Assembly: GCA_005889475.1 (NCBI GenBank)
Contig: VBGT01000026.1
Span: 17,544 to 81,543 of the forward strand
DNA from: Chloroflexota bacterium
Lineage (GTDB): Bacteria; Chloroflexota; Limnocylindria; Limnocylindrales; CSP1-4
Direction: 5' to 3'
Length of the DNA stretch: 64,000 nucleotides
A program made the position numbers and the translations under genes. Of this stretch, positions 1 through 30,055 are shown one piece after another. The notes under the pieces were generated by a model. The model worked only from the letters and a program-made list of their open reading frames with translations. It did not search any database and was not told the DNA's origin. Every line of letters starts with the position of its first letter. Position 1 is the stretch's first letter.

Positions 1-386
1 ACATGGGCCTGGCGATGCTCGACGAGCTCGGGCGATACCGTCACCCGGATGGGACCGGTCTCCAGATGCGCGTCGGGATGCACGTCGGGCCGGCGGTCGC
101 CGGCGTCATCGGGCTCAAGAAGTTCATCTACGACGTGTGGGGCGACACGGTGAACACGGCGAGCCGTATGGAATCGACGGGCCTCCCGGGGCGGCTGCAG
201 GTCACGCGCGAGACGCACGACCGGCTCGCCGGCGAGTTCGACCTCGAGCGCCGTGGGATCGTCGAGGTGAAGGGCAAGGGCCCGATCGAGACATGGCTGC
301 TCATCGGGCGGAAGGCAGCGGCGGCCACAGGCCCGGCGGCGTCGGTTCCAGCGGCCGACCCGAGCGAAAGGGCTCGCGGCAGATGA
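1..386 (+). CDS. class III adenylate/guanylate cyclase, C-terminal part (gene begins left of the window)
   Basis: The ORF is open to the window edge. It carries the catalytic-domain motifs VWGDTVNTASRMES and IVEVKGKG. Its stop overlaps the next start (ATGA at 383-386). Confidence 0.85.
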   Translation, partial: MGLAMLDELGRYRHPDGTGLQMRVGMHVGPAVAGVIGLKKFIYDVWGDTVNTASRMESTGLPGRLQVTRETHDRLAGEFDLERRGIVEVKGKGPIETWLLIGRKAAAATGPAASVPAADPSERARGR

Positions 387-868
387 AGCCGGGCGCCTCG
401 GCGGGGATCCTGCTCTTCCGCCGGCGGGGCCATGGCCTGCAGGTGCTGCTCGCCCATCCCGGCGGGCCGTACTGGAGCCGGCAGGACTTCGGCAGCTGGA
501 GCGTGCCGAAGGGCATCGCCGAGCCGGACGAGGCCCCGGAGAACGTCGCGGCGCGCGAGTTCGCCGAGGAAACCGGCTTCGAGCTCGTCGCCGTCGCGAC
601 GGAGCCGGGCCGCACGCCACTCGACCTCGGTGAGGTGACGCTCAAGAGCGGCAAGGTCGTGCGGGCCTGGGCGGTCGAGGGCGACCTCGACCCGGAGCTC
701 GCCCGATCGAACGAGATCGAGATCGAGTGGCCGCCGCGGAGCGGCCGTATGCAGGTCATCCCGGAGGTGGATCGCATCGCCTGGTTCGCGGCCGACGAGG
801 CTCGCCGGCGCGCCCACCCGGCGCAGGCGGTCTTCGTGGATCGGCTCGAGGCGGCACTCGGCGCGTGA
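383..868 (+). CDS. NUDIX hydrolase
   Basis: ATG at 383. The Nudix box is GIAEPDEAPENVAAREFAEETGF (GX5EX7REUXEEXGU). GC3 is high. Confidence 0.85.
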   Translation: MKPGASAGILLFRRRGHGLQVLLAHPGGPYWSRQDFGSWSVPKGIAEPDEAPENVAAREFAEETGFELVAVATEPGRTPLDLGEVTLKSGKVVRAWAVEGDLDPELARSNEIEIEWPPRSGRMQVIPEVDRIAWFAADEARRRAHPAQAVFVDRLEAALGA

Positions 869-1068
869 GCGAGATTCGCCAGGTCTCTGCGGCGGTCGCT
901 CGCCGCTTCCTCGTCGTGCGCCACCTGCTCGCGCCGCCGCGCAGCCTGCCCCCGAAGCCGGAGAGCGTGCTACGCGTCGTCGATCGGCTGGGCTCCCTCC
1001 AGTTCGACCCGCTCGAGGCTCATGCGTACGGCCGAAACACCGGCTTCACGGGCCGACCACGAAGGTAG
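865..1068 (+). pseudogene. truncated 5' remnant of a ycaQ-family (winged-helix DNA glycosylase) gene
   Basis: The GTG at 865 overlaps the NUDIX stop (GTGA). The first 51 codons (VSEIRQVSAAVARRFLVVRHLLAPPRSLPPKPESVLRVVDRLGSLQFDPLE) match 41 of 51 residues of the N-terminus of the intact gene at 25893. Homology stops near 1020-1040, where the convergent aminotransferase gene ends, and the frame then runs into a stop at 1068. Confidence 0.7.
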
Positions 1069-2342
1069 CGCTCGATCCCATCCTCGAGCGCCCGCTCATA
1101 GACGCCCAGTGTCTCGTCGAGGGCGCTCACCGTTCGATCGATGTCGGCATCGGATAGCGCCGCGCTGACGACGAAGGACGGTCCAAGAACCCCGCGGGAG
1201 ATGAGCTCCTGCAATACCAGCGTGCGGAACGGCTGGGAGCGATTGCCGTCGCGGTCCAGCGTCGAGAAGACCAGGTTGCTCGGCCGGCCCAGCAGCTGGA
1301 AGGTGTCGCCGAGGCCGTGCCTGTCAATGGCCTGCCCGGCGCCGAGCGCAAGTCTTCGGCCACGATCGTCCAGACGATCGATCACCGACTCGACCTCGTA
1401 CGTATCGATGACTGCGAGCAGCGCCGCGAGCGCGTGCACCTCGGCGCCGTGCGTCGTCGAAAGCGTGAAGACTCGCTCCCGATCGTCGCGAATGCCGCCG
1501 AGGCCCAGCAGCGTTCGGGGGCCAACGAGCGCCGAGATGGCGAACCCGTTGCCAATCGCCTTGCCGAACGCCGCGAGGTCGGGCCGGACACCGTAGACCT
1601 GCTGTGCGCCCGCCATGTGCCAGCGGAAGCCCGTGATCATCTCGTCGAAGATGAGGAGCGCGCCGTGCTCGTCGCACAGCAGCCGAAGTCCCTCGAGGAA
1701 GCCGGCCTCGGGCTCGACGACGGTGGCAGGCTCGAGCACCAGGCCCGCTACCTGGCCCGGACGTTCGGCAAACAGCTGCCGCACCGAGGCGAGGTCGTTA
1801 TAGCGGAAGGTGACGGTCAGGTCGCGCACCACCTGGGGCACGCCGGCCGGCATGGCAGTGCGGCCGATGAACCAGTCGTCCGTCGAGAAGAAGGGCTGGT
1901 CGGCGCAGATCGCGATCAGGTCCCTGCCGGTCGCCGCTCGGGCGAGCCGAACGGCGGCGGTGGTCGCGTCCGAGCCGTTCTTGGCGAACTTCACCATCTC
2001 GTGACCGACGACGCCGAGAAATCGCTCGGCGGCAGCCAGCTCCATCGACGACGGGCGGACGAAGTTGCTGCCGAGATCCAGGGCGACTCGCACCGCCTCG
2101 ACAACCCTCGGATGGGCGTGCCCGAGCGTGACGGCGCGGAGCCCGGACCCGTACTCGATGTAGTCATTGCCGTCCAGGTCCCAGACGTGGCTGCCTCGAC
2201 CGCGCTCGATGACCGGCGCAACGCCCTCGGGGAACTGGTCGTCCCCCTTGGCGTAGGTGTGGGCGCCACCCGGCACGAGGCGATGAAGCCGCTCGCTGGC
2301 CTCCGTCGAACGTGCGCGAGCTGTGTCGATGACCGCCATCAC
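1020..2342 (-). CDS. class III PLP aminotransferase, glutamate-1-semialdehyde aminomutase-like
   Basis: 440 aa. Motifs are GSGLRAVTLGHAHP, DEMITGFR and the PLP-lysine motif FGKAIGNG. It is the first gene of the polysaccharide cluster. Confidence 0.8.
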   Translation of the reverse strand: MMAVIDTARARSTEASERLHRLVPGGAHTYAKGDDQFPEGVAPVIERGRGSHVWDLDGNDYIEYGSGLRAVTLGHAHPRVVEAVRVALDLGSNFVRPSSMELAAAERFLGVVGHEMVKFAKNGSDATTAAVRLARAATGRDLIAICADQPFFSTDDWFIGRTAMPAGVPQVVRDLTVTFRYNDLASVRQLFAERPGQVAGLVLEPATVVEPEAGFLEGLRLLCDEHGALLIFDEMITGFRWHMAGAQQVYGVRPDLAAFGKAIGNGFAISALVGPRTLLGLGGIRDDRERVFTLSTTHGAEVHALAALLAVIDTYEVESVIDRLDDRGRRLALGAGQAIDRHGLGDTFQLLGRPSNLVFSTLDRDGNRSQPFRTLVLQELISRGVLGPSFVVSAALSDADIDRTVSALDETLGVYERALEDGIERYLRGRPVKPVFRPYA

Positions 2343-13194: not shown

Positions 13195-14418
13195 GTGACC
13201 GTCCAGGAAGTCGAGGGGACCAACCAGGGTCCCGCGCCGAGCGTCAGCACGCCCGTCGAGGCGCTGCCGCGCGTCCACACGCTCGCCCCGGAGACCGTGG
13301 TCACCATCGAGGTGGCACTTGCTCCGGCGGGCTCGCGGCCAACGCGGATCGCCGCGATCGGCGGGCCGCCGGCAGCGCTCCCGAACGACCTCGTCCAACT
13401 TCTTACGGGCGCTGACACGAGCGACGCCGACGTCCTGCTGATCTGCCCGGGCGAGGAGGACGCGGAACATCTCGGGCCGGACCTGTCGGCCCTGGGGCGG
13501 GCCTGCGCCGATGTCGTCGCGGCGGCTCGGCCGGGCCAGACGCTCATCATGACGTCGGCGAGCTACGTCGGCTGCGCGCGCGACCTCCTGCTGATCCCCC
13601 TTGCAAAGCGTGGGCTCGTCGCAGGCCGCGACATCCATGTCGCCGTCAGTCCCGAGCCGGTGCCAGGGGCCCCGAAGCGCCGCGGCCGCGTCGTCGGCGG
13701 AGCGACGGCGGCCTGCACGCTGGCGGCCGCGGCCGTGCTCGAGCCGGTCGGGCCGATCATCGCGGCGCTCACCCTCGAGGATGCCGAGGCCGCCTCAATG
13801 GCGACCGATGGTCCGAGCCGTCTTGGCGCCGTCGCAAAGCGGCTGGTCGATGTCGTCGGAGCGTCCATCGGATTGCTCCTGGCCGCACCGCTCCTGCTGG
13901 TCGTCGCCCTCGGCGTCATCTCGGACAGCCGCGGCCCGATCCTGTTCACCCAGGACCGCGTCGGCCGAAACGGGCGCCTCTTTCGCTTTCGGAAGTTTCG
14001 AACCATGACCGATGACGCGGAGGAGCGCCTCGGCGAGGTCCTCCACCTGAATACCATCCGGGGTCCCGCGATCCAGATCGACGGTGACCCGCGCGTCACG
14101 CGAATCGGGGGCTTCCTGCGACGCAGCAGCCTCGACGAGCTCCCGCAGCTGTGGAACGTGCTGGTGGGCGAGATGAGCCTCGTTGGCCCGCGCCCCGCTC
14201 CCATCGTGGAGGTCGCCGCATACAAGCCGTGGCATCGCCGCCGGCTGGCCGTGAAACCTGGGCTGACAGGGCTCGCCCAGGTTCGTGCTCGCAACTATCG
14301 CGAGTTCGACGTGAAGGCCGGCCTCGATCTCCAGTACGTTGACCATTGGTCCCCATGGCTCGACGTTCGGATCCTGCTCGAGACGGTGCCGTCGGTCCTG
14401 CGCTTCACGGGGCGGTGA
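13195..14418 (+). CDS. initiating phosphoglycosyl transferase (bacterial sugar transferase domain) with an unusual soluble N-terminal domain
   Basis: The C-terminal half has one TM (IGLLLAAPLLLVVALGVI) and the hallmarks FRFRKFRTM, DELPQLWNVLVGEMSLVGPRP and KPGLTGLAQV. The N-terminal ~200 aa have no TM. Confidence 0.85.
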   Translation: MTVQEVEGTNQGPAPSVSTPVEALPRVHTLAPETVVTIEVALAPAGSRPTRIAAIGGPPAALPNDLVQLLTGADTSDADVLLICPGEEDAEHLGPDLSALGRACADVVAAARPGQTLIMTSASYVGCARDLLLIPLAKRGLVAGRDIHVAVSPEPVPGAPKRRGRVVGGATAACTLAAAAVLEPVGPIIAALTLEDAEAASMATDGPSRLGAVAKRLVDVVGASIGLLLAAPLLLVVALGVISDSRGPILFTQDRVGRNGRLFRFRKFRTMTDDAEERLGEVLHLNTIRGPAIQIDGDPRVTRIGGFLRRSSLDELPQLWNVLVGEMSLVGPRPAPIVEVAAYKPWHRRRLAVKPGLTGLAQVRARNYREFDVKAGLDLQYVDHWSPWLDVRILLETVPSVLRFTGR

Positions 14419-20294: not shown

Positions 20295-20364
20295 CCCGTC
20301 GGGCATGCAATCATCGCGCGGTGGACGTCGCCTTCGGCGCTTCAGCCCGTTGCCGCCCGGCCCG

Positions 20365-21153
20365 ATGAAGGTCGTGTTGTTCTGCGGCGGGCGGGGCATC
20401 CGCCTGCGCGAGCACAGCGAGACGGTGCCAAAGCCGATGGTCACCATCGGCTACCGGCCGATCCTGTGGCACGTCATGCGCTACTACGCCCATTACGGCC
20501 ACCGCGAGTTCATTCTCTGCCTCGGATATAAGGCCGACGTGATCAAGCGCTACTTCCTCGACTACGAGGAGGCGCTCAGCAACGACTTCGTCCTGAACGG
20601 CAGCGACCGGAAGGTCGAGCTGCTCGGGCGTGACATGGACGACTGGGAGATCAGCTTCGTCGACACCGGCCTCAATGCCACGCTGGCCGAGCGACTCTGC
20701 GCCATCCGGCCGCATCTCGGCGGAGACGACGTCTTTCTCGCCAATTACGCCGACGTCCTTACCGATGCGCCGCTCAACGACCTCGTCGACGACTTCGCGA
20801 ATGGCGACGCGATCGCCGCCTTCCTGTCGATTCGGCCAACGAACTATTCCTTCCACATCGTGCGGATGCGCGACGAGCGGCGGGTCGCCGGCGTGGAGGA
20901 CGTCACGAGCGCAAACCTCTGGATCAACGGCGGCTATTTCATCCTGCGCCATGAGATCTTCGACTACATCCGGCCGGGCGAGGAGCTGGTCATGGAGCCC
21001 TTCGCGCGCCTGGCGGCTGAGGACCGGCTGATCAGCTACCCGTACACCGGATTTTGGGCGCCGCTCGACACGATCAAGGACATGCGGACCCTCGAAGAGC
21101 AGAACGAGACCGGCTCACCGCCGTGGGCCGTGTGGCAGCGGCATTCCGGATGA
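20365..21153 (+). CDS. rfbF: glucose-1-phosphate cytidylyltransferase
   Basis: The N-terminus MKVVLFCGGRGIRLREHSETVPKPMVTIGYRPILWHVM and the C-terminal FWAPLDTIKD ... PPWAVW match the RfbF layout. Confidence 0.85.
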   Translation: MKVVLFCGGRGIRLREHSETVPKPMVTIGYRPILWHVMRYYAHYGHREFILCLGYKADVIKRYFLDYEEALSNDFVLNGSDRKVELLGRDMDDWEISFVDTGLNATLAERLCAIRPHLGGDDVFLANYADVLTDAPLNDLVDDFANGDAIAAFLSIRPTNYSFHIVRMRDERRVAGVEDVTSANLWINGGYFILRHEIFDYIRPGEELVMEPFARLAAEDRLISYPYTGFWAPLDTIKDMRTLEEQNETGSPPWAVWQRHSG

Positions 21154-21166
21154 GGCGGGCTAGGCC

Positions 21167-21814
21167 ATGTTGACCGTGCTCCCCGAACGCGACGATCCGT
21201 ACCGTCTCCTGGTGCTGGGGGCCCATCCGGACGACATCGAGATCGGCTGTGGGGCGACGCTCATGAGGCTGGTGGCCGATCACCCGTCGGCCCGGCTCCG
21301 CTGGGTGGTCTTTTCCGGCGAGGATGCCAGGGCCGACGAGGCGCGGAGGAGCGCGGACGACCTCGTGGGCGACCCGGCCCGCGTAGCCCTCACCCTCCAC
21401 GGCTACCGCGATGGCTTCTTCCCGTACGACGGCGCGTCAATCAAGGAGGCGTTCGAGGCGATCAAGGGATCGTTCGAGCCTGATCTCATCCTGACCCATC
21501 GGCTTGAGGACGCCCATCAGGACCACCGGCTCATCGCCGAGCTGACGTGGCAGACCTTCCGATCGGCGATGATCCTCGAGTACGAGATCCCCAAGTACGA
21601 GGGCGACCTTGGACAGCCGAATCTCTTCGTGACGGTGAGCCCGGACCTGGCGGACCGCAAGGTGCAGCACCTGCTGACCGCCTTCCCCACCCAGCGTGAT
21701 CGCCGCTGGTTCAGCGAGGATCTGTTCAGGGCAACGCTCAGGCTGCGGGGGATCGAGTGTGCCTCGCCCAGCGGCCTAGCCGAGGGATTCACGTGCCGAA
21801 AGGTGACCATGTGA
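21167..21814 (+). CDS. PIG-L/LmbE family de-N-acetylase
   Basis: Motifs [18 protein letters not shown] and HQDH. The stop overlaps the next start (ATGTGA). Confidence 0.8.
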
Positions 21815-22809
21815 CCGCGCAGGCCGCCGGCGGCGCCTTCTGGCGCGATCGCCCGACGCTCGTCACCGGGGCGACGGGCCTGCTGGGCGGCTGGCTCGTC
21901 GCTCGATTGGTCGACGCTGGCGCGGATGTCGTCTGCCTGGTGCGCGACTGGGTTCCCGACTCGCAGCTCGTGCGCGCCGGCCTGTTGGAGCGCACGAAGC
22001 TGGTACGCGGCGACGTCCGTGACCAGGCCGTCCTGGAGCGGACAGTCGGCGAGTACGAGATCGACACCGTGTTCCACCTTGCCGCGCAGACCATCGTGGG
22101 GATCGCCAATCGCAACCCGATCTCAACATTCGAGACCAACATCGCCGGCACCTGGCGGCTGCTCGAGGCGGCGCGCCGGAGCCCGACCGTCAAGCAGATC
22201 GTGGTCGCTTCCTCGGACAAGGCCTACGGCAGCCACGATGTCCTCCCCTACACCGAGGAGGCGCCGCTCGTCGGCCGGCACCCGTACGACGTGAGCAAAT
22301 CGGCGGCCGATCTGGTCGCCCAGTCGTATGCCGCGACCTACGATCTGCCGGTCGGGATCACCCGCAGCGGGAACCTCTACGGTGGCGGGGATCTCAACTG
22401 GAGCCAGCTGATCCCGGGCACGATCCGCTCGATCCTGCGCGGCACGCGCCCCGTCATCAGGTCCGATGGCACGTACGTCCGCGACTATTTCTACGTCGAG
22501 GACGGCGCCGCCGCGAACATGGCGCTCGCCGAGGGATTGGCGCGCGATTTTGAGTTGCGCGGCGAGGCGTTCAATTTCTCGAACGAGCTCCAGATGACCG
22601 TCCTCGAGGTCGTCGAGCGCATCCTGGGCCTCATGGGCTCGGATCTCGAGCCCGAGATCCGCAACGAGGCGACGCACGAGATCCGGCATCAGTACCTCAG
22701 CGCGGAGAAGGCCAGGCGAACGTTGGGCTGGGAGCCACTCTTCACGCTGGACGCCGGGCTGCGTCGCACCATCGACTGGTACGCGGAGCTCCTGGCTTCG
22801 GGCCGATGA
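21811..22809 (+). CDS. rfbG: CDP-glucose 4,6-dehydratase
   Basis: GTG at 21811. Motifs are [19 protein letters not shown] and YDVSKSAAD. It follows rfbF in the same operon. Confidence 0.8.
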
Positions 22810-23348
22810 TCATCACCGATGCCGGGCTGGCGGGCGCTTGCATTGTGGAGCTCGAGCGGCGCGAGGACGAACGCGGCTTCTTCGCGCGCAGCTGGTCTGT
22901 GGGCGAGTTCGCCGCCCACGGGCTGAACCCCAGTCTGGTCGAATGTGACATCTCCTTCAATCACCGCAGGGGCACGCTCCGCGGAATGCACTACCAGGCG
23001 GCGCCGCACGCGCAGGCAAAGGTCGTCCGATGCACTGCAGGCGCGATCTACGACTGCATCATCGACCTGCGCCCCGACTCGCCGACCTTCACGCGCTGGG
23101 TGGGGGTCGAGCTCGACGCCGAGAATCGCCGCGCCCTCTACGTCCCGGAGGGTTTCGCTCACGGCTTCCAGACCCTGGTCGACGGAGCCGAGGTCGCCTA
23201 CCAGATGTCGGCGGTCCACGTGGCGGACGCCGAGCGCGGCGTGCGCTGGGACGATCCGGCTTTCGGGATCATTTGGCCGGAGCCGGTTCGCGTGATCAGC
23301 GAGCGAGACCGTACGTATCCGGACTTCGTCACGCAGGCCGCGCGCTAG
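22806..23348 (+). CDS. NDP-4-dehydro-6-deoxyhexose 3,5-epimerase (RmlC-like cupin)
   Basis: ATGA overlap with rfbG. Motifs are DERGFF, LRGMHYQ, KVVRC and VPEGFAHGF. Confidence 0.85.
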
Positions 23349-23352
23349 GCGG

Positions 23353-24168
23353 TCAGGACTCCGCCGCAGCCTTGGCGCCGTCGGCCTCGCGCCTCCAGAC
23401 GGCCCACGGCGCCTGTCCGGACTCCTCGAGCGCCACGAGTTCCTGTACGTCACGCAGCGTGTTCATCGGGATCCAGAAGCCGTCGTGGCGGAAGCTCGTG
23501 AGCTTGTTCTCGGCCAGCAGCCGCTGGAAGGGCTCGTCGGGCAGGTCTCCGTCGCCGGCCTGGATGTAGTCGAAGATCTCCTGCCGAAGCACGAAGAAGC
23601 CGTTGTCGATCCAGACGTCGGAGCTCGAGACATCCCGGAGCAGGGTCACGCTGCCGTCCTCGGCCTGCTCGACCACGTGGAACGGCCCGCGCTGCCGGAC
23701 CGCCATGAACGAGGCGACCTTGTCCGGGTGCCGGCGGAAGTCGTCGACGATCGCCTCCATCGACGCATCCGAGACGATGTCGCCGTAGTTGGCGCAGAAG
23801 ATCTCTTCGCCCCTTACGTGCTCGCGGACGGCGCGCAGCCGCTGGCTGATCGTGGCGTTCACCCCGGTGTCCGCGAACGTGATCGTCCAGTCGCGGATAT
23901 CGGCCTGGAGGAGTCGGACGTCCCCTGTGCCGGCCGAGAGGACGAAGTCGTTGGAGAGCGCCTCGCTGTAGTCCAGGAAGTAGCGCTTGATCAGGTCGCC
24001 ACCGTAGCCCAGGCAGAGCACGAAGTCGCGCATTCCCCAATGGGCGTACCAGCGCATGACGTGCCACAGGACCGGCCGGTAGCCGATCATGACCATCGGC
24101 TTGGGCACCGGTCGATCGTGCTCGGTGAGCCGCAGCGGCGCGCCGCCGCAGAACAGCACGACCTTCAT
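23353..24168 (-). CDS. second glucose-1-phosphate cytidylyltransferase paralogue, divergent in the nucleotide-binding motif
   Basis: The N-terminus is MKVVLFCGGAPLRLTEHDRPVPKPMVMIGYRPVLWHVM and the protein is colinear with rfbF at 20365. ATGA overlap with the upstream methyltransferase. Confidence 0.8.
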   Translation of the reverse strand: MKVVLFCGGAPLRLTEHDRPVPKPMVMIGYRPVLWHVMRWYAHWGMRDFVLCLGYGGDLIKRYFLDYSEALSNDFVLSAGTGDVRLLQADIRDWTITFADTGVNATISQRLRAVREHVRGEEIFCANYGDIVSDASMEAIVDDFRRHPDKVASFMAVRQRGPFHVVEQAEDGSVTLLRDVSSSDVWIDNGFFVLRQEIFDYIQAGDGDLPDEPFQRLLAENKLTSFRHDGFWIPMNTLRDVQELVALEESGQAPWAVWRREADGAKAAAES

Positions 24169-25463
24169 CGCGGCATGTCGGCCGGAGAGTCGACGTCGTC
24201 GAGGGTGGGAATGGGCACGACCAGGCGTGTGCCGGTGGCGCGGAGCGGGGCCAGCTGCGCGGCGATCTCCGAGCGGAGATTCCACGGCAGGACGAGCACC
24301 ACGTCCGGGCGAGCCTCGTCGAGGGCCTCCGGCGGACGGATCGGAATGTGCATCCCGGGGGTGAATCGTCCGTGCTTGTGGGGGTTGCGGTCGACGGTGA
24401 ACGGCAGCAGGTCGGGCCCGATGCCGCAGTAGTTCAGGAGGGTATTCGCCTTACCCGGGGCGCCGTAGCCGGCGATCGAGTGGCCGGCTTCGCGCTCCGA
24501 GATCAGAAATGCAAGCAGCGCGCGCTTGGTCGCCGCGACGCGCTCAGCGAAACCCGCATGGCCGGCCACGCTGTCGTAGCCCGCGGCGGCCTCGCGCTCG
24601 AGGAGAGCCGCCACGCGCGGACTCGGCGGCCGCCGGTCGGCGTCATGCGCCGCGAGGACCCGGAACGAGCCGCCGTGGGTCGACAGCTCCTCGACGTCGA
24701 TGACACGCAGCCCGTGGCGGGCCAGCGCCGCGGACGCCGTGCGCAGGGTGAAGTACGAGAAGTGCTCGTGGTAGATCGTGTCGAACTCGTTTCGCTCGAC
24801 GAGCCGTGGGAGGTGCTGGACCTCGATCGACAGCGTTCCGCCGTCGGCCAGCAGAGCCGCAAGCCCGGCGGTCACGTCGTCCAGGTCCGGCACGTGGGCG
24901 TAGACATTGTTCGCCACGATGAGGTCCGCCGGGCCGTGCTCCCCGCGGATCTCCGCGGCGAGCTGCCGTCCGAAGAACTCGTCGACCGTCGGGATGCCCC
25001 GGGCGCGGGCGACCTCGGCGATGTTGCGGGCCGGGTCGATCCCGAGCACCGGGATGTCGCGTGCCAGGAAGTGCTGGAGGAGGTAGCCATCATTGCTGGC
25101 GACCTCGACCACCCGGCTTTGCGGCCCCAGGTCGAGCCGTTCGATCATCGCCTCCGCGAAGGTCCTTGCGTGGGCGACCCAGCTGTCCGAGTACGAGGAG
25201 AAGTAGTAGTACTCCCGGAAGATCTCGTCCGGCGGCACGTACGACGGTAACTGTACAAGGAGGCAGCTGGAGCAGATCCGGACATGGAGCGGATAGAACG
25301 GCTCCATATCGTCGAGCTGGTCGGCGGTCAGGAAGCGTTCGCACAGCGGCGACATGCCGAGGTCGACGAACGTCGTCTCGAGGGACGCGCCGCACAGGCG
25401 ACACGACACCACGCTCGGGTGCAGTGCGGTGACGGCGTCGGAGACGAGCGTGCCCTGCGACAT
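24165..25463 (-). CDS. SAM-dependent NDP-hexose C-methyltransferase (TylC3-like)
   Basis: ATG at 25463. The Zn-ribbon is CRLCG...CSSC and the SAM motif is VVEVASNDGYLL. NNVYAHVPD and YHEHFSYF are present, with a C-terminal Methyltransf_14-like region. The longest ORF (to 26117) is a non-coding-looking extension. Confidence 0.85.
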   Translation of the reverse strand: MSQGTLVSDAVTALHPSVVSCRLCGASLETTFVDLGMSPLCERFLTADQLDDMEPFYPLHVRICSSCLLVQLPSYVPPDEIFREYYYFSSYSDSWVAHARTFAEAMIERLDLGPQSRVVEVASNDGYLLQHFLARDIPVLGIDPARNIAEVARARGIPTVDEFFGRQLAAEIRGEHGPADLIVANNVYAHVPDLDDVTAGLAALLADGGTLSIEVQHLPRLVERNEFDTIYHEHFSYFTLRTASAALARHGLRVIDVEELSTHGGSFRVLAAHDADRRPPSPRVAALLEREAAAGYDSVAGHAGFAERVAATKRALLAFLISEREAGHSIAGYGAPGKANTLLNYCGIGPDLLPFTVDRNPHKHGRFTPGMHIPIRPPEALDEARPDVVLVLPWNLRSEIAAQLAPLRATGTRLVVPIPTLDDVDSPADMPR

Positions 25464-25658
25464 CGGCGGAGAGTGTATCGGCTGGCCAGTCTCGCCCCGG
25501 CGCACGATCCGGGGAGTGGTGCGCGCACGCAGCGGCTCGGCGCGGCTGGCCGTACCCTGTAGCGCGCGCCCAGCCGCCTGCACGACGCGGTCCGCATGGA
25601 GCGAGAGCGAGCTGAGCGCATGTCCACCTCGCCGCTCGAAAGCGGGCCGTACGGAACG

Positions 25659-25883
25659 ATGAGCGAGTTCTTCGACCCGACGGCCATGGACGAGGAGGGC
25701 AACGGCTTGCTGAGGTTGTACCCGGCCGGCCCCAAGGGTTCGGACGACCGGCCCATGTCGCAGAGCTTCACGGTGGGGGCGGGCGACACCTACACCGTAT
25801 TCGTGACGACGTCCGGCCCGCCGGATGGCGGTTTTGGCAGGGACGGCGATCTCCGGTCGATCATGGTCGCTCTGGAGCCATAG
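25659..25883 (+). CDS. small hypothetical protein (74 aa; possible start also at 25596)
   Basis: High-GC3 ORF with a balanced composition (MSEFFDPTAMDEEGNGLLRLYPAGPKGSDDRPMSQSFTVGAGDTYTVFV...). It ends 9 nt before ycaQ. I recognise no family. Confidence 0.35.
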   Translation: MSEFFDPTAMDEEGNGLLRLYPAGPKGSDDRPMSQSFTVGAGDTYTVFVTTSGPPDGGFGRDGDLRSIMVALEP

Positions 25884-25892
25884 CGGCCGACC

Positions 25893-27248
25893 TTGACCGA
25901 GACGCGGCAGCTCTCCACGGCGGTCGCCCGCCGCTTCCTCGTCCTCCGCCACCTCCTCGCGCCGCCACGGTCGCTGCCGGCGGAACGCGAGAGTGTCCTC
26001 GCCGTCGTCGATCGACTCGGCTCGCTCCAGTTCGACCCGCTGGAGGTCGCGGGCCGGAACCATGACCTGGTCCTGCTCGCCCGCATCGGGGGTTACCGCC
26101 GGGACTGGACCGACCACTGGCTGTACGAGGACCGGCGCCTCTACGAGACCTACAACAAGAGCCTGTCAATCGTGCCCGTGGCGGAGCTGCCCTGGTATCG
26201 CTACGTCTGGGACCGGATGCAGGCCCGGCACGAGGCCGGCGCCTTCGATGACCACGCCCCGCTCGTCGAGGAGCTGCTGGCTCGAATCCGCGACGGTGGA
26301 TCGCTGCTCCCGCGGGACGTCGGCGCGCGGGAGGCGATCGACTGGTACTGGCGCCCGACCAACCAGGTGCGCGCGATCCTCGAGGCGCTCGCGGAGGTCG
26401 GCACCCTCGGCATCGCTCGCCGCGAGGGCAACCTGCGCGTGTACGACCTCATGGAGCGTCTCCTCCCGCCGGAGGTGCTCGCGGAGCGCCGCCCGAAGGA
26501 GGATCAGCAGGCCCATCGCCTCCTGGCCCGGTATCGGGGCAACGGCCTGCTCGGTGCGTCCGGCAACCAGGAGCTCTGGGTCGGCGGCACCGGCTATGCG
26601 GCGGACCGGGCAGCCGTCCGGGCCAAGTTGATGGACGAAGGCCGGCTCGTCCCGGTCCAGGTGGAGGGCCTGCGAGGCGAGCGCTTCGTCGTTGCGGAAG
26701 ACGCCGGGTACCTCGACGCGGCAGAGCGTGAGATCCGGCAGGCCGCTTCACCTGGTGGCAAAGACCCGGCCGTCGCGTTCCTGGCGCCGCTGGACCCGCT
26801 GTGCTGGGATCGCGACCTGCTGCGCCGGCTGTTCGAGTTCGACTACGTGTGGGAGGTGTATGTCCCGGCCGCGAAGCGACGCTGGGGCTACTACGTCCTG
26901 CCGGTCCTGTACGGCGACCAACTCGTCGGGCGCATCGAGCCGCGGCTGGACCGCCGGGCTGGCACGCTGCGGGTCGCCGGGCTGTGGTGGGAACCTGGCT
27001 TCAACCCGTTGGATGCACCGGGTTTCGTCGCCGCCTTCGCCGATGCGCTGATCGCGCACCGCGACTTCGGCGACCTCACGGCGATCTCGTTCCCGCCGGG
27101 ATCGCGCCACCGCGCCCTCGCGACGGCGGTCCGCGGCGCTCTCGAGGTGCGTGGCTCGAAGCCGAAGCCTGTGGGACGATGTACCCGTCGAAGCGGCGGC
27201 GGCTCGATCGCTCGCAAGCCGACCCGGAAGGAGGCATCCGATGGCTGA
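25893..27248 (+). CDS. ycaQ: YcaQ-family winged-helix DNA glycosylase (interstrand-crosslink repair family)
   Basis: TTG start. The C-terminal block LAPLDPLCWDRDLLRRLFEFDYVWEVYVPAAKRRWGYYVLPVLYGDQLVGRIEP closely parallels E. coli YcaQ (SPFDPVVWDRKRAEQLFDFSYRLECYTPAPKRQYGYFVLPLLHRGQLVGRMD). Confidence 0.85.
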   Translation: MTETRQLSTAVARRFLVLRHLLAPPRSLPAERESVLAVVDRLGSLQFDPLEVAGRNHDLVLLARIGGYRRDWTDHWLYEDRRLYETYNKSLSIVPVAELPWYRYVWDRMQARHEAGAFDDHAPLVEELLARIRDGGSLLPRDVGAREAIDWYWRPTNQVRAILEALAEVGTLGIARREGNLRVYDLMERLLPPEVLAERRPKEDQQAHRLLARYRGNGLLGASGNQELWVGGTGYAADRAAVRAKLMDEGRLVPVQVEGLRGERFVVAEDAGYLDAAEREIRQAASPGGKDPAVAFLAPLDPLCWDRDLLRRLFEFDYVWEVYVPAAKRRWGYYVLPVLYGDQLVGRIEPRLDRRAGTLRVAGLWWEPGFNPLDAPGFVAAFADALIAHRDFGDLTAISFPPGSRHRALATAVRGALEVRGSKPKPVGRCTRRSGGGSIARKPTRKEASDG

Positions 27249-27687
27249 GGTCCGCACCGCGAACGTCATCTGGAGCGGCGACCTGGTCAACGGCTCCGGG
27301 ATCATCACCTACGTCACCAGCGGCGTCTTCTCGCGCCTGCCCATCAGCTGGGCCTCGAGAACCTCCGCCCACGACGGCAAGACGAGCCCCGAGGAGCTGC
27401 TCGCCGCGGCCCACGCCTCGTGCTTCTCGATGGCCTTCTCGGCCAGGCTCGCCAAGAACGACACGCCGGCGACGACCCTCGACGTCCGCGCCGAGGTCAC
27501 CTTCGAGCAGCTCGAGAGCGGCTGGAAGGTCGCAGCCTCGAAGCTGATCGTGAAGGGCACGGTCCCGGGCATCGACAAGGCGACGTTCGATCGCCTGGCC
27601 GAGGATGCCAAGGAGAACTGCCCCATCTCCGGCGCCCTGCGCGGCAACGTCCAGCTCTCGGTCGAGCCGACGCTCGTCGAAGCCTGA
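27241..27687 (+). CDS. osmC: OsmC-family peroxiredoxin
   Basis: ATG at 27241, overlapping the ycaQ stop. The conserved Cys motifs are AAHASCFSMA and ENCPIS. Confidence 0.85.
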   Translation: MAEVRTANVIWSGDLVNGSGIITYVTSGVFSRLPISWASRTSAHDGKTSPEELLAAAHASCFSMAFSARLAKNDTPATTLDVRAEVTFEQLESGWKVAASKLIVKGTVPGIDKATFDRLAEDAKENCPISGALRGNVQLSVEPTLVEA

Positions 27688-27691
27688 TCGC

Positions 27692-30055
27692 GTGTTCACC
27701 CGCTGGGGTGGCTTCGTCTATCGCCGCCGGCGCTGGCTGGCGCTCTTCGCGATCGTCGTGGCCGCGGCATTCGGGTCGCTCGCCGGGGGCGCGACCGACC
27801 ACCTGACCACCGGCGGCTGGCTCGATCCGAAGTCCGAATCCGCCCAGGTGTCCGACCGCCTCGAGCGGGACTACGGCGCGGGCCGGACCGCCTTCATCGC
27901 CCTCTTCGAATCGACCGACCGGAACGCCGACGCGACGGCCGCCGGCTTCCAGGCCGCGGTCGCCGCGGCTCTCGAACCCGTACTCCAGGTCGAGGGCGTC
28001 ACCGGCGCCACCGGCTACGCCCAGACGCACGATCCGCGGTTCATCAGCGTCAAGGGCGACAAGGCATACGTGCTGATCGGGCTCGACGTCGACGAGGATC
28101 GCTCCATCGACCTCGTGACCCCGGTCAAGGATGCCCTCCGGACGGCGACGCCTACCGGCTTCGACGTCAAGCTCACCGGCTTCGGCCCGATCCAGCAGGA
28201 CTCGGCGCGCCTGTCCGAGGAGGACCTGACCCGCGCCGAGACGGTGTCGCTGCCGATCGCGGCGCTGGTGCTCATCCTCGTGTTCAGCTCGCTGATCGCT
28301 GCCGGCATGCCGCTGCTCGTCGCCGGCCTCGCCATCCCGACCTCGCTGGGAGTGATCAGCCTTGTCGCCCAGCAGACGGAGATGAGCATCTACGTCCTGA
28401 ACATCGCCACGATGCTTGGCCTGGCGCTGGCGATCGACTACTCGCTGTTCCTCACCAGCCGGTTCCGCGAGGAGCTGGCGCGCGGCCGGACCGTCGAGCA
28501 GGCGGTGGAACGGGCGGTCGGGACGGCGGGGAAAGCGGTCCTGTTCTCCGGCGTGGCGGTCGCGATCGGCCTGTCCGGCCTGCTCTGGTTCCAGGCGAGC
28601 GGCCTGAGCTCGATCGGGCTCGGCGGCGCGATCGTCGTCCTCGCCTCGGTCTTCTACAGCCTGACCTTCCTGCCGGCGATCCTGGGCATGCTCGGGCCGC
28701 GGGTGAACGCCCTGTCGGTTGCCGGGCTCCTGCGCCGGCTCGGGCTGCGGCGCGAGCGCGCGGGCGAGATTCGCCGGTCCCGCTGGGAGCAGGTCGCGCA
28801 CGGCGTGATGCGCCGCCCAATCGCGGTGCTCGTGCCGGTGCTCGCCTTCCTGCTGCTGGTCGGCTCGCCGTACCTGCGCCTCCAGCAGGGCGTGCCCGAC
28901 GCGACGGTCTACCCCGCCGGCGTCCCGAGCCGCGACGCGTGGGTCGCGCTCCAGACCGAGTTCCGCGCCGGCGAGACGACGCCGATCGTCATCCTGCTGG
29001 ACACGAAGGACGGCCCGACGACCGAGGCGACGATCCTGGCCGTGAGCGCGATCGCCAACCGTCTCGCGGAGATCGACGGAATCGATCGCGTGGAGGGGCC
29101 GTTCTCGCTGATGAACCGCGAGGCCGGAGCGCCGTTCGACGCGGCGGCGGTCGCGCAGCTCTACAACCAGCCCGGTCCGCTGCCGCCGGACCTCGCCGCC
29201 GGAATCGCCCGGTTGAAGGACGCGTACATTCGCGGCAACACCGTGCGGCTCGATGCCATCAGCCCGTACAAATCGTCCGAGCCGGCGGGCACCGCGCTGA
29301 TCTCGCGCGTGCGCGCGGTCCAGCTCGATCCCGCAATCACCCGGATGCAGGTCGGTGGCGCCGCGGCCGTCGGCGAGGACTTCCTGATCGCCCAGTCGCA
29401 GCGCATCCCGTGGGCGGTGGGCACGACCCTGCTCGCCTCGGCGGTGATCCTGTTCCTGCTGTTCGGCTCGCTCGCGATCCCGCTCAAGGCCGTCGTGATG
29501 ACGCTCCTGTCCCTCACCGCCAGCTTCGGCGCCCTCGTCTGGATCTTCCAGGAGGGCAACCTGCACGAGCTGCTCCGGTTCGAGCCGCTCGGGTACACGA
29601 TCGCCGGCAACCCGATCATCATGTTCGCGGTCCTGATCGGCCTATCGATGGACTATGAGGTCCTCCTCCTGTCGCGCATCCAGGAGTCGTACCGGCGGAC
29701 GGGCGACAACGCGACCGCGGTCGCCGAGGGACTCTCGCGGACGGCCGGGGTGATCACGGGCGCGGCCCTGATCATGGTCACGGTCTTCGCCGCCTTCGCC
29801 CTCGCCGACACGATCACGATCAAGAGCATCGGCGTGGGCATGGCGCTCGCCGTGGCGCTCGACGCGACCATCGTCCGCGTCCTGCTCGTGCCCGCCACGA
29901 TGCGCCTGCTCGGTCGATGGAACTGGTGGGCGCCCGGCCCGCTCGGCCGGCTGGCGGAGCGGTTCGGCTTCAGCCACGTCGAGGACGAGGAGGATCTCGC
30001 CGCCGCGTCGGGGGACGGCCACGAGCCAGGCGAGCCCGCGGCGGCCCCCGCCTGA
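27692..30055 (+). CDS. MMPL-family (RND-related) membrane transporter
   Basis: GTG at 27692. There are two 6-TM bundles, each preceded by a soluble loop, with typical MMPL motifs (GLALAIDYSLFLTSRFREE, GLSMDYEVLLLSRIQE). Confidence 0.85.
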   Translation: MFTRWGGFVYRRRRWLALFAIVVAAAFGSLAGGATDHLTTGGWLDPKSESAQVSDRLERDYGAGRTAFIALFESTDRNADATAAGFQAAVAAALEPVLQVEGVTGATGYAQTHDPRFISVKGDKAYVLIGLDVDEDRSIDLVTPVKDALRTATPTGFDVKLTGFGPIQQDSARLSEEDLTRAETVSLPIAALVLILVFSSLIAAGMPLLVAGLAIPTSLGVISLVAQQTEMSIYVLNIATMLGLALAIDYSLFLTSRFREELARGRTVEQAVERAVGTAGKAVLFSGVAVAIGLSGLLWFQASGLSSIGLGGAIVVLASVFYSLTFLPAILGMLGPRVNALSVAGLLRRLGLRRERAGEIRRSRWEQVAHGVMRRPIAVLVPVLAFLLLVGSPYLRLQQGVPDATVYPAGVPSRDAWVALQTEFRAGETTPIVILLDTKDGPTTEATILAVSAIANRLAEIDGIDRVEGPFSLMNREAGAPFDAAAVAQLYNQPGPLPPDLAAGIARLKDAYIRGNTVRLDAISPYKSSEPAGTALISRVRAVQLDPAITRMQVGGAAAVGEDFLIAQSQRIPWAVGTTLLASAVILFLLFGSLAIPLKAVVMTLLSLTASFGALVWIFQEGNLHELLRFEPLGYTIAGNPIIMFAVLIGLSMDYEVLLLSRIQESYRRTGDNATAVAEGLSRTAGVITGAALIMVTVFAAFALADTITIKSIGVGMALAVALDATIVRVLLVPATMRLLGRWNWWAPGPLGRLAERFGFSHVEDEEDLAAASGDGHEPGEPAAAPA

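Follow-up and report, generated by a model that had tools for sequence, protein, structure and literature searches.

The stretch of Limnocylindrales DNA analysed here (64,000 nucleotides, referred to below as the window) carries two copies of the 5' end of ycaQ, a short one directly behind a NUDIX hydrolase gene and one that belongs to an intact gene about 25 kb further on, with a surface-polysaccharide cluster between them. This raises the question of how one gene came to have two heads with a glycan cluster lodged between them, and which of the two heads belonged to the resident genome. We compared the locus with related genomes and metagenome contigs, and examined both edges of the cluster.

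The truncated ycaQ frame beside the NUDIX gene

The NUDIX hydrolase gene (383-868, plus strand; Pfam PF00293; 91% nucleotide identity to metagenome contigs L248 and L249) ends with a stop codon at 866-868, and GTG 865 opens a further reading frame inside this GTGA overlap, as a preliminary description of this DNA had reported. After 67 codons the frame meets a stop (1066-1068). Its first 51 codons (865-1017, plus strand) resemble ycaQ and include the Q-F-D catalytic motif; the remaining 16 are read antisense from the 3' end of the neighbouring aminotransferase gene, the open frame continuing through what appears to be imported DNA. BLASTP of the stub against the intact AlkZ-like/YcaQ protein gave 45/58 (E = 9e-26), and by eye 42 of the first 51 residues are identical, or the 41 counted previously if the V and L start codons are scored as different. 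At the nucleotide level, where about three-quarters identity had been estimated, the alignment gave 79.7% (138 sites compared). The 28 differences are distributed 7:3:18 over the three codon positions, and the longest exact run common to both copies is a 17-mer already quoted in the preliminary description, CTCCAGTTCGACCCGCT.

The N-terminal 50 residues are strongly conserved across all of the ycaQ orthologues that we aligned, and the high protein identity between the stub and the intact head is therefore not peculiar to this pair. What is diagnostic of the origin of the stub is its position, its frame, its overlap with the NUDIX gene and the comparisons at nucleotide level. It can be seen from the latter that the stub is 88.2% identical to the backbone relatives L248 and L249, 79.7% identical to the intact copy and 78.9% identical to a further contig, L247. 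Its divergence from 16 close orthologues (6.6, 3.3 and 18.3 for the first, second and third codon positions) lies inside the range of real orthologues, its first and second positions being changed no more often than theirs, and the stub has decayed little since it was truncated.

The 67-aa product matched no Pfam family, PF06224 included, and the body of the domain is missing; the stub is a relic and not a member of the AlkZ-like/YcaQ family. It does not form part of a longer functional protein, as the ORF stops at 1068. A 113-codon ORF (727-1068) was considered as a longer in-frame protein and rejected, since it only extends the frame of the stub back across the NUDIX gene, which is itself read in another frame. 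The genome, a 123-contig MAG, contains only two ycaQ matches, the stub and the intact gene. The stub appears to be the head left over from the original resident ycaQ.

Gene order in related Limnocylindrales

The order (cyclase)-NUDIX-ycaQ-osmC-MMPL was found across approximately 90 loci and metagenome contigs of related Limnocylindrales, in a set made up of genus representatives, 80 loci compared across species representatives, and the closest metagenome contigs. In the window, the NUDIX gene is preceded by the 3' end of an adenylate/guanylate cyclase gene that starts upstream of the window (3-386, plus strand; Pfam PF00211, E = 1.2e-33), as it is in L245, L248, L061, L069 and G023. On the other side, the intact ycaQ is followed by an OsmC-like gene (27241-27687, plus strand; Pfam PF02566), which also comes after ycaQ in most relatives. 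The cyclase, NUDIX and OsmC-like genes would all be resident backbone, and the ordinary character that had been ascribed to the genes downstream of the intact copy is borne out. The closest metagenome contigs L245 and L248 carry cyclase-NUDIX-ycaQ-osmC-MMPL in full, while L242, L243, L244 and L249 carry NUDIX-GTGA-ycaQ with ycaQ continuing beyond codon 52, as far as the contigs reach; the overlap of the NUDIX stop with the ycaQ start is found in L242-L246. A glycan cluster between NUDIX and ycaQ was seen in none of the approximately 90 related loci, and neither were two adjacent ycaQ genes.

The GTDB species representatives are about equally distant (70-85% at the amino-acid level), so that a ranking by identity could not say which flank is foreign; the closer metagenome contigs resolved this. 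The synteny comparison that had been proposed thus found NUDIX-ycaQ-osmC loci free of the cluster, and the order cyclase-NUDIX-ycaQ-osmC, which had been suggested as ancestral, is present in species representatives and closest metagenome contigs alike. To judge from these gene orders, the ancestor of this Limnocylindrales population must have carried cyclase-NUDIX-ycaQ-osmC-MMPL, with ycaQ starting within the NUDIX stop codon (GTGA).

Two apparent origins within the intact ycaQ gene

The intact gene (25893-27248) encodes a protein of the AlkZ-like/YcaQ (HTH_42) DNA glycosylase family that matched PF06224 with 181.5 bits (curated cut-off 25.9), residues 39-386 corresponding to profile positions 1-323 of 329, and PDB chain 9zd6_A with E = 1.3e-29. 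Proteins of this kind have a catalytic motif Q-hydrophobic-D (or Q) near the N-terminus, represented by Gln45/Asp47 in E. coli YcaQ (PMC7367128). In the intact protein the motif is Q46-F47-D48 in 'GSLQFDPLE', which aligns with 'VIQIDSVN' of 9zd6_A.

The two parts of the gene have different closest relatives. The 5' two-thirds (25893-26790, plus strand, TTG start) are 98.8% identical at the nucleotide level to L247 and 80-81% identical to L248 and L249, and the 3' third (26799-27248, plus strand) is approximately 89% identical to L248 and L249. When the window was compared with L247, the maximum chi-square breakpoint fell at 26797 (mismatch 1.6% before and 10.6% after; chi-square 83); with L248 it fell at 26783 (20.8% before and 11.3% after; chi-square 35) and with L249 at 26792 (19.9% before and 11.3% after; chi-square 18). 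These breakpoints place the putative homologous crossover, the right joint of the import, at 26783-26798, where a block conserved in every lineage begins, and those against L248 and L249 reappeared on a MAFFT alignment. A tree of ycaQ nt 154-890 recovered the window and L247 as sisters (100/100) with L248 and L249 in a separate clade (100/100), and in a tree of nt 910-1350 the window, L248, L247 and L249 fell in one clade (100/99). The topology thus switches between these two segments. In a tree from the 153-nt head alone, of the kind that had been suggested, the stub was placed without strong support. L248 compared with L249 shows no drop in the 5' part, and rate heterogeneity therefore does not account for the mosaic pattern. 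We conclude that the intact ycaQ is evidently a chimera of two lineages; the chimeric protein, with an imported head that carries Q-F-D and a resident tail, is presumably functional. The earlier suggestion that one gene head was brought along with the cluster agrees with this, the first approximately 900 nt of the intact gene being the probable imported part and the stub the resident head. Divergence between the copies had been taken to mean either an old event or a heterologous donor: the heterologous donor is favoured, since the stub lacks an excess of first- and second-position change and the tract occurs at 98.8% identity in L247.

The flanks of L247 differ by approximately 10% from those of this genome, and its ycaQ tail is close to L249 (92-97% per 100-nt window). 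The same 98.8%-identical tract, with the same boundary, is thus found in two backbones approximately 10% apart, which means either that crossing over took place more than once in this conserved block or that secondary transfers occurred. The L247 contig reaches only 41 nt into the upstream stretch that it shares with the window, so the match covers the ycaQ tract and not the cluster itself.

A potential explanation for two copies that flank the cluster as direct repeats in the same orientation is that they arose and diverged in place, by local duplication or as ancient tandem paralogues, and that the cluster landed between them. This is already contradicted by the comparisons above: the copies differ at a between-species level without an excess of non-synonymous change in the stub, the stub is closer to L248, and the intact head to L247, than the two are to each other, and adjacent ycaQ pairs are absent from the approximately 90 related loci. 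We regard local duplication as extremely improbable.

The left joint and the glycan cluster

The left joint was aligned against seven ycaQ alleles, and identity to every one of them ends at 1017, two nucleotides before the stop codon (1020-1022, minus strand) of a class-III aminotransferase gene (1020-2342, minus strand; Pfam PF00202). The end of homology had been placed at 1020-1040, where the aminotransferase gene terminates; the coincidence with the aminotransferase stop stands, but the homology ends slightly earlier, at 1017/1018. This non-homologous joint, which would connect nt 153 of the resident ycaQ to imported DNA, is identical in L219, L220, L221 and L250. Small recombination patches were also observed in neighbouring genes within the population, in the NUDIX gene of L250 and in the aminotransferase gene of L221.

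The aminotransferase gene, probably the first imported gene, is complete to its last residue: its best matches anywhere are 57-66% identical, mostly from Actinomycetes, and the alignments reach residues 436-440 of 440. It has no close homologue among 60 genomes of the genus (best match 40-43%), and a look-up of the exact protein gave no match. The best match in the genus for the C-methyltransferase at the other end of the cluster is 65%, and sequence searches did not find the donor of the cluster. Pfam assigns the cluster (1018-25463, approximately 24.4 kb and 19 genes), which is absent from the site in all of the relatives examined and would be imported, to surface-polysaccharide biosynthesis of the Wzx/Wzy type, with a Bac_transf initiating phosphoglycosyl transferase (PF02397), a MurJ/Wzx-type flippase (PF03023), a Wzy_C polymerase (PF04932) and a Wzz chain-length regulator (PF02706) with a P-loop kinase domain. 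The other products are a beta-helix protein, GT2 and GT4 glycosyltransferases, two C-methyltransferases, two AsnB-like proteins, epimerases/dehydratases, and NTP transferase, PIG-L and RmlC-like proteins.

No integrase, transposase or plasmid/ICE gene was matched by Pfam among the cluster ORFs scanned, two of which had no match at all, and the sole tRNA call falls inside the MMPL gene, in agreement with the earlier remark that the edges carry no integrase, transposase or tRNA. In a search for att-like repeats the longest exact direct repeat was 17 nt, and there were no inverted repeats of at least 10 nt at the edges. Scans of both junctions for promoters and terminators found none, such scans being uninformative at 70% GC. 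The suggested scans of GC and tetranucleotide composition were also run: the tetranucleotide distance of the cluster lies between the 6th and 91st percentile of genome windows, and in GC only approximately 17.5-25 kb reaches the 4th-7th percentile. The cluster is thus not a compositional outlier, and the test speaks neither for nor against a foreign origin.

As the genome is a 123-contig MAG, the contig could in principle be a chimera of two strains or loci, fused at about 1020. However, the joint between NUDIX, stub and aminotransferase recurs in assemblies from other samples (L219, JGI 3300009137; L221, ERZ28573606; L250, ERZ27315204), and the right junction is present in contigs from at least 10 sample accessions with 99.6-99.99% identity across it. 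In addition, the longest exact repeat of 17 nt is by estimate too short to mislead an assembler using k of at least 21. Since independent assemblies carry both junctions, each seen singly, we conclude that the locus is not a misjoin, the probability of an assembly chimera being negligible.

The right flank of the cluster

The whole of 1020-25892 had been assigned to glycan biosynthesis. This holds for 1020-25463, but 25464-25892 consists of the region upstream of the C-methyltransferase gene and a gene relic, orf95. The non-coding stretch (25464-25646) is probably imported, and by blastn its positions 25593-25633 are 95% identical to nt 1-41 of L247. The relic orf95 (25596-25883, plus strand), which would also be part of the import, derives from a lipoprotein-like gene of approximately 290-300 aa; in L060 (9108-9980) and L068 (9066-9980), full-length homologues occupy the interval from NUDIX to ycaQ. 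The relic is without the signal/lipobox end and approximately 125 internal codons. L247 retains more of the lipoprotein-like gene, together with a NUDIX 3' remnant of that layout. Like the 67-codon ORF at 865-1068, orf95 is a gene relic and not a gene, and we take it to be a second scar, a relic probably imported with the cluster.

Reconstruction of the event

We conclude that the stub is probably the resident head that was cut off as approximately 25.8 kb of foreign DNA, the glycan cluster with a ycaQ 5' tract attached, was spliced in. The import would extend from 1018 to approximately 26790 and comprise the approximately 24.4-kb Wzx/Wzy cluster, the short non-coding stretch, what is left of a NUDIX 3' end and of the lipoprotein-like gene, and the first approximately 900 nt of ycaQ. 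At the right end it would have been incorporated by homologous recombination within ycaQ, at the start of the strongly conserved block (26783-26798), and at the left end it would have been joined without homology to the resident ycaQ after nt 153 (1017/1018). The resident ycaQ from nt 154 to approximately 895 (approximately 740 nt), a segment that is absent elsewhere in the genome, would have been lost and replaced by the approximately 25.8 kb, the outcome being a 51-codon stub that still overlaps NUDIX by GTGA and a full-length chimeric ycaQ. Later, approximately 400 nt would have been lost in this lineage, comprising the NUDIX remnant and the 5' end of the lipoprotein gene, both of which L247 retains. 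The preliminary description had held that the mechanism was not visible; this no longer applies, as one illegitimate joint and one homologous crossover within ycaQ were identified. We infer a single step of homology-facilitated illegitimate recombination, with one homologous anchor and one illegitimate end. Uptake by transformation is possible. Homologues of ComEC (PF03772) and DprA (PF02481) are present; however, the same families match in 10-11 of 14 control genomes and so say little about competence.

The direction of transfer would be into an L248/L249-like backbone. This assignment rests on flanks of approximately 1 kb (left) and 6 kb (right), L247, L248 and L249 being short metagenome contigs, and the polarity might for that reason be reversed, with the cluster and the L247-type ycaQ 5' tract native, and cyclase-NUDIX-stub on one side and the ycaQ tail with the downstream genes on the other derived from an L248-like lineage. 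Such a history would need two separate imports from one lineage, one for each side. It also sits poorly with L247, whose possession of the same tract in a different, L249-like backbone marks the tract as the moving piece, with the uninterrupted site of all relatives that have the L248-like layout, and with the cluster edge gene, for which the genus (60 genomes) offers no close homologue. We therefore consider reversed polarity very unlikely.

Campbell-type integration is a somewhat better candidate, although still an unlikely one. Here a circular intermediate would have carried the cluster with a NUDIX 3' end, the lipoprotein gene and the 5' part of ycaQ; a single crossover in ycaQ would have duplicated the segment, and later deletions would have cut the left copy back to 51 codons and eliminated the right NUDIX remnant. 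The right flank in L247 begins at about NUDIX codon 117, so that the two flanks formerly shared the interval between the NUDIX 3' end and ycaQ codon 51, in the manner of a flanking direct repeat. Moreover, in cassettes from other phyla, L160 and L151 among them, the aminotransferase and C-methyltransferase genes adjoin in the same orientation; here they lie at opposite ends of the cluster, and circularisation of the segment would make them adjacent again. However, if the crossover lay at about nt 900, the left copy would at first extend to nt 900 or so, and a second deletion, from exactly nt 154 to 2 nt past the aminotransferase stop, would be needed, giving more events in total than the single one-sided event. 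The repeats are in addition only approximately 80% identical, with an identical core of at most 17 nt, and the ORFs scanned included no integrase or plasmid/ICE gene.

Relation to known recombination systems

Homology-facilitated illegitimate recombination is described for Acinetobacter, Streptococcus pneumoniae, Pseudomonas stutzeri and E. coli conjugation in PMC3240628 and in references given in PMC5361080. There, as here, the recipient DNA between joint and anchor is lost and neither a recombinase gene nor an att site is necessary, and the present locus has both the homologous end (26783-26798) and the non-homologous end (1017/1018) by which such events are recognised. It differs in being inferred from a natural scar, in the size of the insert (approximately 25.8 kb), and in that the anchor alleles are approximately 20% different just before the crossover. 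Inserts obtained in the laboratory by this route are reportedly much shorter than 25.8 kb. The same one-sided mechanism has been put forward for the orphan immunity-gene arrays in T6SS clusters of Vibrio cholerae (PMC5361080). In those arrays, too, incoming DNA displaces part of the resident genes and leaves an orphaned resident fragment beside the new module, but the cargo consists of effector-immunity pairs and the orphan, an immunity gene, is functional, whereas the stub described here has no detectable domain.

Integrase-mediated genomic islands insert at the end of a gene and restore that gene with a copy that they carry. As at this locus, part of the target gene is present as a direct repeat on either side of the insert, and the incoming sequence keeps the gene intact; however, we found no integrase, convincing tRNA or identical att core here, and the incoming replacement is approximately 900 nt long and ends in a graded homologous crossover. 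Capsule and O-antigen switching proceeds through conserved flanking genes, as for the pneumococcal cps locus between dexB and aliA or the E. coli O-antigen locus between galF and gnd. As in the present case, a whole glycan cluster moves between related lineages without mobile-element genes, the flanking genes are mosaic, and one tract is found in two backbones (the window and L247). Here, in contrast, only one flank is homologous, the site is empty in relatives, so that the event is a gain and not an allele swap, and a stub was left behind.

The process is already well known, and the value of this locus is therefore that of a clean example and not of a new principle: it is a scar of horizontal gene transfer, ordinary in kind though well resolved. 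It allows a natural event, the entry of a 25-kb glycan cluster into the chromosome of an uncultured soil Chloroflexota, to be reconstructed with both joints mapped within a few bases. The usual assumption is that clusters of this kind influence contacts at the cell surface, such as those with phages and predators; if so, exchange between approximately 90%-identical soil lineages parallels capsule switching in pathogens. The presence of the tract with the same boundary in two backbones, along with the recombination patches in neighbouring genes, leads us to suggest, tentatively and as the less probable case, that the cluster and its attached ycaQ 5' tract are spreading laterally among related Limnocylindrales without mobile-element genes, with the block at ycaQ nt 900 or thereabouts as a recurrent anchor. 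If this were true, one-sided recombination would have made the locus a hotspot of surface-glycan 'serotype switching' in an uncultured soil phylum.

A truncated ycaQ head follows the NUDIX gene

The NUDIX gene at 383-868 (PF00293) has its stop codon in a GTGA overlap with the next open reading frame, a stub of 67 codons that has a GTG start at 865 and ends at 1068. Codons 1-51 of the stub (865-1017) align to the N-terminus of the intact AlkZ-like/YcaQ protein (45 of 58 residues identical by BLASTP, E = 9e-26), which is encoded at 25893-27248 by the sole full copy in the genome (PF06224, 181.5 bits). At the nucleotide level the two heads are 79.7% identical, with 28 differences among 138 compared sites distributed 7:3:18 over the codon positions, and the 17-mer quoted in the preliminary description was recovered as the longest exact run common to both; the truncated ycaQ copy reported there is thus confirmed. 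The ycaQ homology stops at 1017/1018, 2 nt short of the stop codon (1020-1022) of a class-III aminotransferase gene on the minus strand (1020-2342). The stub retains its GTGA overlap with the NUDIX gene and has a 49-nt overlap with the convergent aminotransferase gene; no Pfam match was found for it, and the remainder of the domain is absent. The Q-hydrophobic-D catalytic motif, Gln45/Asp47 in E. coli YcaQ (PMC7367128), is Q46-F47-D48 and lies inside the duplicated head, hence in both copies.

As the N-terminal segment of ycaQ is strongly conserved across all orthologues compared, the protein identity of the heads alone is unremarkable. Their divergence is at the level seen between orthologues of different species, and stub and intact head each have nearer matches elsewhere than one another. 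We conclude that the two heads are not a local duplicate, and that they diverged when each was still functional in a lineage of its own. Against 16 close orthologues the stub shows on average 6.6, 3.3 and 18.3 differences at the three codon positions; because this is inside the range of genuine orthologues there has been little neutral decay, and the truncation is recent relative to species divergence.

Relatives have an empty site

The genome under study is a 2.64-Mb MAG in 123 contigs, and its relatives are labelled Candidatus Limnocylindrales or Chloroflexota. Across genus representatives and 80 loci around ycaQ orthologues, the backbone order is conserved upstream genes, a variable gap, (cyclase)-NUDIX-ycaQ-osmC, a variable stretch and MMPL, and in none of them is a glycan cluster found between NUDIX and ycaQ. 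Among closer metagenome contigs, located by searching with the NUDIX and YcaQ proteins, NUDIX-GTGA-ycaQ continues as a full running-on gene in L242, L243, L244, L245/L246, L248 and L249, and the complete series cyclase-NUDIX-ycaQ-osmC-MMPL is present in L245 and L248. The ancestral order cyclase-NUDIX-ycaQ-osmC that had been proposed from the sequence was correct, as the representatives, the 80 loci and these last two contigs show it.

The NUDIX-ycaQ interval is a site of recurrent gene gain and loss. A more distant Limnocylindrales subgroup (L078, L080, L082, L089, L093 and L095) carries other minus-strand cargo there, including a membrane protein of ~263 aa that in some loci is accompanied by a ~1050-aa RND-type-transporter-like protein (judged by size and N-terminal sequence only). 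In other species, glycan genes occur a short way upstream of the locus. L047 (genome G013:C20) has C-methyltransferases, an NTP transferase and PIG-L upstream of cyclase-NUDIX-ycaQ, and L051/L052 (genome G005:C6) have, directly upstream of NUDIX, a homologue of the Bac_transf gene at window 13195-14418 with 56-72% identity.

The interval between the copies

By Pfam, 1020-25463 is a typical Wzx/Wzy-type polysaccharide cluster encoding the aminotransferase, a beta-helix protein, GT2 and GT4 glycosyltransferases, two C-methyltransferases and two AsnB-like proteins, along with a MurJ-type flippase, a Wzy polymerase, a Wzz/kinase, a Bac_transf initiating transferase, NTP transferases, a PIG-L deacetylase, dehydratase/epimerases and an RmlC-like enzyme. 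The claim that polysaccharide genes fill the whole gap therefore stands for 1020-25463 but not for 25464-25892, which is not glycan biosynthesis and holds a gene relic, orf95. Of the cluster ORFs scanned, none matched an integrase or transposase family in Pfam (two matched no family), and promoter and terminator scans at the two junctions found nothing. The aminotransferase is complete, homologue alignments extending to residues 436-440 of 440; its best matches (57-66%) are mostly from Actinomycetes, and within the genus identity is 40-43%. No donor of the cluster is represented among the sequences searched. The GC/tetranucleotide scan suggested in the preliminary description was uninformative: composition across the cluster is not set apart from the genome and does not single it out.

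The aminotransferase, C-methyltransferase, NTP transferase, PIG-L deacetylase and RmlC-like genes recur jointly as a cassette (window 1020-2342 and 20305-25463; loci L140-L217) in many Actinomycetes and also in Gemmatimonadales, Acidobacteriota and Cyanobacteria, at ~35-66% identity by gene. In the window the cassette is split: the aminotransferase gene is at the extreme left of the cluster, the remaining genes at the extreme right. ORF 23353-24285 on the minus strand, without a Pfam hit, and the NTP transferase at 20305-21153 on the plus strand align to identical regions in relatives (about 53-55% vs 56-58%); the two are paralogues.

The intact ycaQ is a mosaic

The YcaQ encoded by metagenome contig L247 is 95% identical to that of the window. 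Nucleotide identity to the window over the left flank (1-1017) is 79.2% for L247 (317 nt aligned) and 87.6% for each of L248 and L249, the nearest backbone relatives; for L247, L248 and L249 respectively it is 79.8% (168 nt aligned), 91.4% and 90.9% over NUDIX (383-868), and 78.9%, 88.2% and 88.2% over the stub (865-1017). Within the intact ycaQ (25894-26700) the values are 98.8%, 80.5% and 81.4%, and over 26800-27687 they are 89.9%, 89.1% and 88.5%. The maximum chi-square switch point falls at 26797 against L247, 26783 against L248 and 26792 against L249, and the L248 and L249 breakpoints were found again on a MAFFT alignment. Maximum-likelihood trees of ycaQ nt 154-890 group the window with L247 as sisters (100/100) and place L248 and L249 in a clade apart (100/100); with nt 910-1350 all four fall in one clade (100/99). 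A potential explanation for the identity switch is rate heterogeneity, which we reject since L248 compared with L249 shows no 5' drop. The intact ycaQ is thus a chimera, of which the first ~900 nt probably came with the cluster and the last ~450 nt are probably resident, and the stub is probably the resident ycaQ head.

The crossover coincides with the beginning of a block that all lineages conserve, directly after a hypervariable stretch, and such a position is a natural place for strand exchange. The tail of L247 is close to L249 (92-97% per 100-nt window), and therefore the same tract is present in two backbones that differ by about 10%; this would reflect either repeated use of the conserved block as an anchor or a secondary transfer of the unit.

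Further downstream, 250 nt inside the MMPL gene (29000-29250) form a local hypervariable segment, with 64-78% identity in every comparison against 78-94% for its neighbours. The single ARAGORN tRNA call, tRNA-Ser(tga) at 29083-29154, lies inside the MMPL coding region, where the high GC content makes a false positive likely.

Both junctions occur in other assemblies

The left joint (1017|1018) is found in L219 (JGI 3300009137), identical to the window over 383-2342, in L221 (ERZ28573606), identical through the joint, and in L250 (ERZ27315204), where the stub and aminotransferase end are 100% identical. Contigs of at least ten sample accessions have 99.6-99.99% identity across the right junction. 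A misjoin, considered in the preliminary description for about 1020, is excluded for practical purposes, as both junctions are seen in other assemblies and the copies share no exact repeat longer than 17 nt.

L221, a strain-level contig, is identical to the window through NUDIX, stub and the 3' half of the aminotransferase gene; within 1155-1668, mismatches crowd together beyond about 1556 and homology ends at about 1668. The N-terminal half of the aminotransferase is replaced there by unrelated sequence, and the gene downstream is also a different one (glyoxalase-like). This divergence reflects either further recombination inside the edge of the cluster or a short contig that is itself chimeric. 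L250 is otherwise near-identical (99.5% at the cyclase end), but has 46 mismatches limited to 363-776, 43 of them inside NUDIX, which resembles a small patch of recombination among members of the population.

A second scar at the right flank

The relic orf95 (25596-25883) derives from a lipoprotein-like gene of ~290-304 aa, sited between NUDIX and ycaQ in loci L060 and L068; it matches the middle and last 14 residues and is without the signal/lipobox end and about 125 internal codons. The chimeric ycaQ has a TTG start 9 nt beyond the orf95 stop. The left flank has the layout in which NUDIX overlaps ycaQ and the right flank derives from a NUDIX-lipoprotein-ycaQ layout, a different version of the locus. 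The first 41 nt of L247 match window 25593-25633 at 95% and are followed by a NUDIX 3' remnant from about codon 117 (79% identical to the window genome's NUDIX, with C-terminal residues that by eye resemble the L060 NUDIX), more of the lipoprotein-gene relic, and then ycaQ; about 400 nt present in L247 are missing from the window. Because L247 keeps a NUDIX remnant next to the shared tract, the imported piece would originally have held one too, and in the source the cluster would already have adjoined a scarred copy of the NUDIX-ycaQ locus.

A probable one-sided recombination event

The locus has two joints, the intervening resident DNA is lost and the site is empty in relatives. The simplest reading is a single one-sided event that swapped about 740 nt of resident ycaQ for about 25.8 kb, the right end (26783-26798) being joined by homologous crossover and the left end (1017|1018) illegitimately. 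One homologous and one illegitimate joint is the pattern that defines homology-facilitated illegitimate recombination (PMC3240628), a mechanism also proposed to explain natural scars in Vibrio cholerae (PMC5361080). We infer the polarity, the single-step nature and the uptake route; the genome has ComEC and DprA homologues, both from families too widespread to count as evidence. The first interpretation of the region as a fossil junction is supported; at base-level resolution the junction now reads as the scar of a one-sided recombination, which also turned ycaQ into a chimera. Rather than a new kind of system, it is a good example, from nature and from an uncultured phylum, of a process already known.
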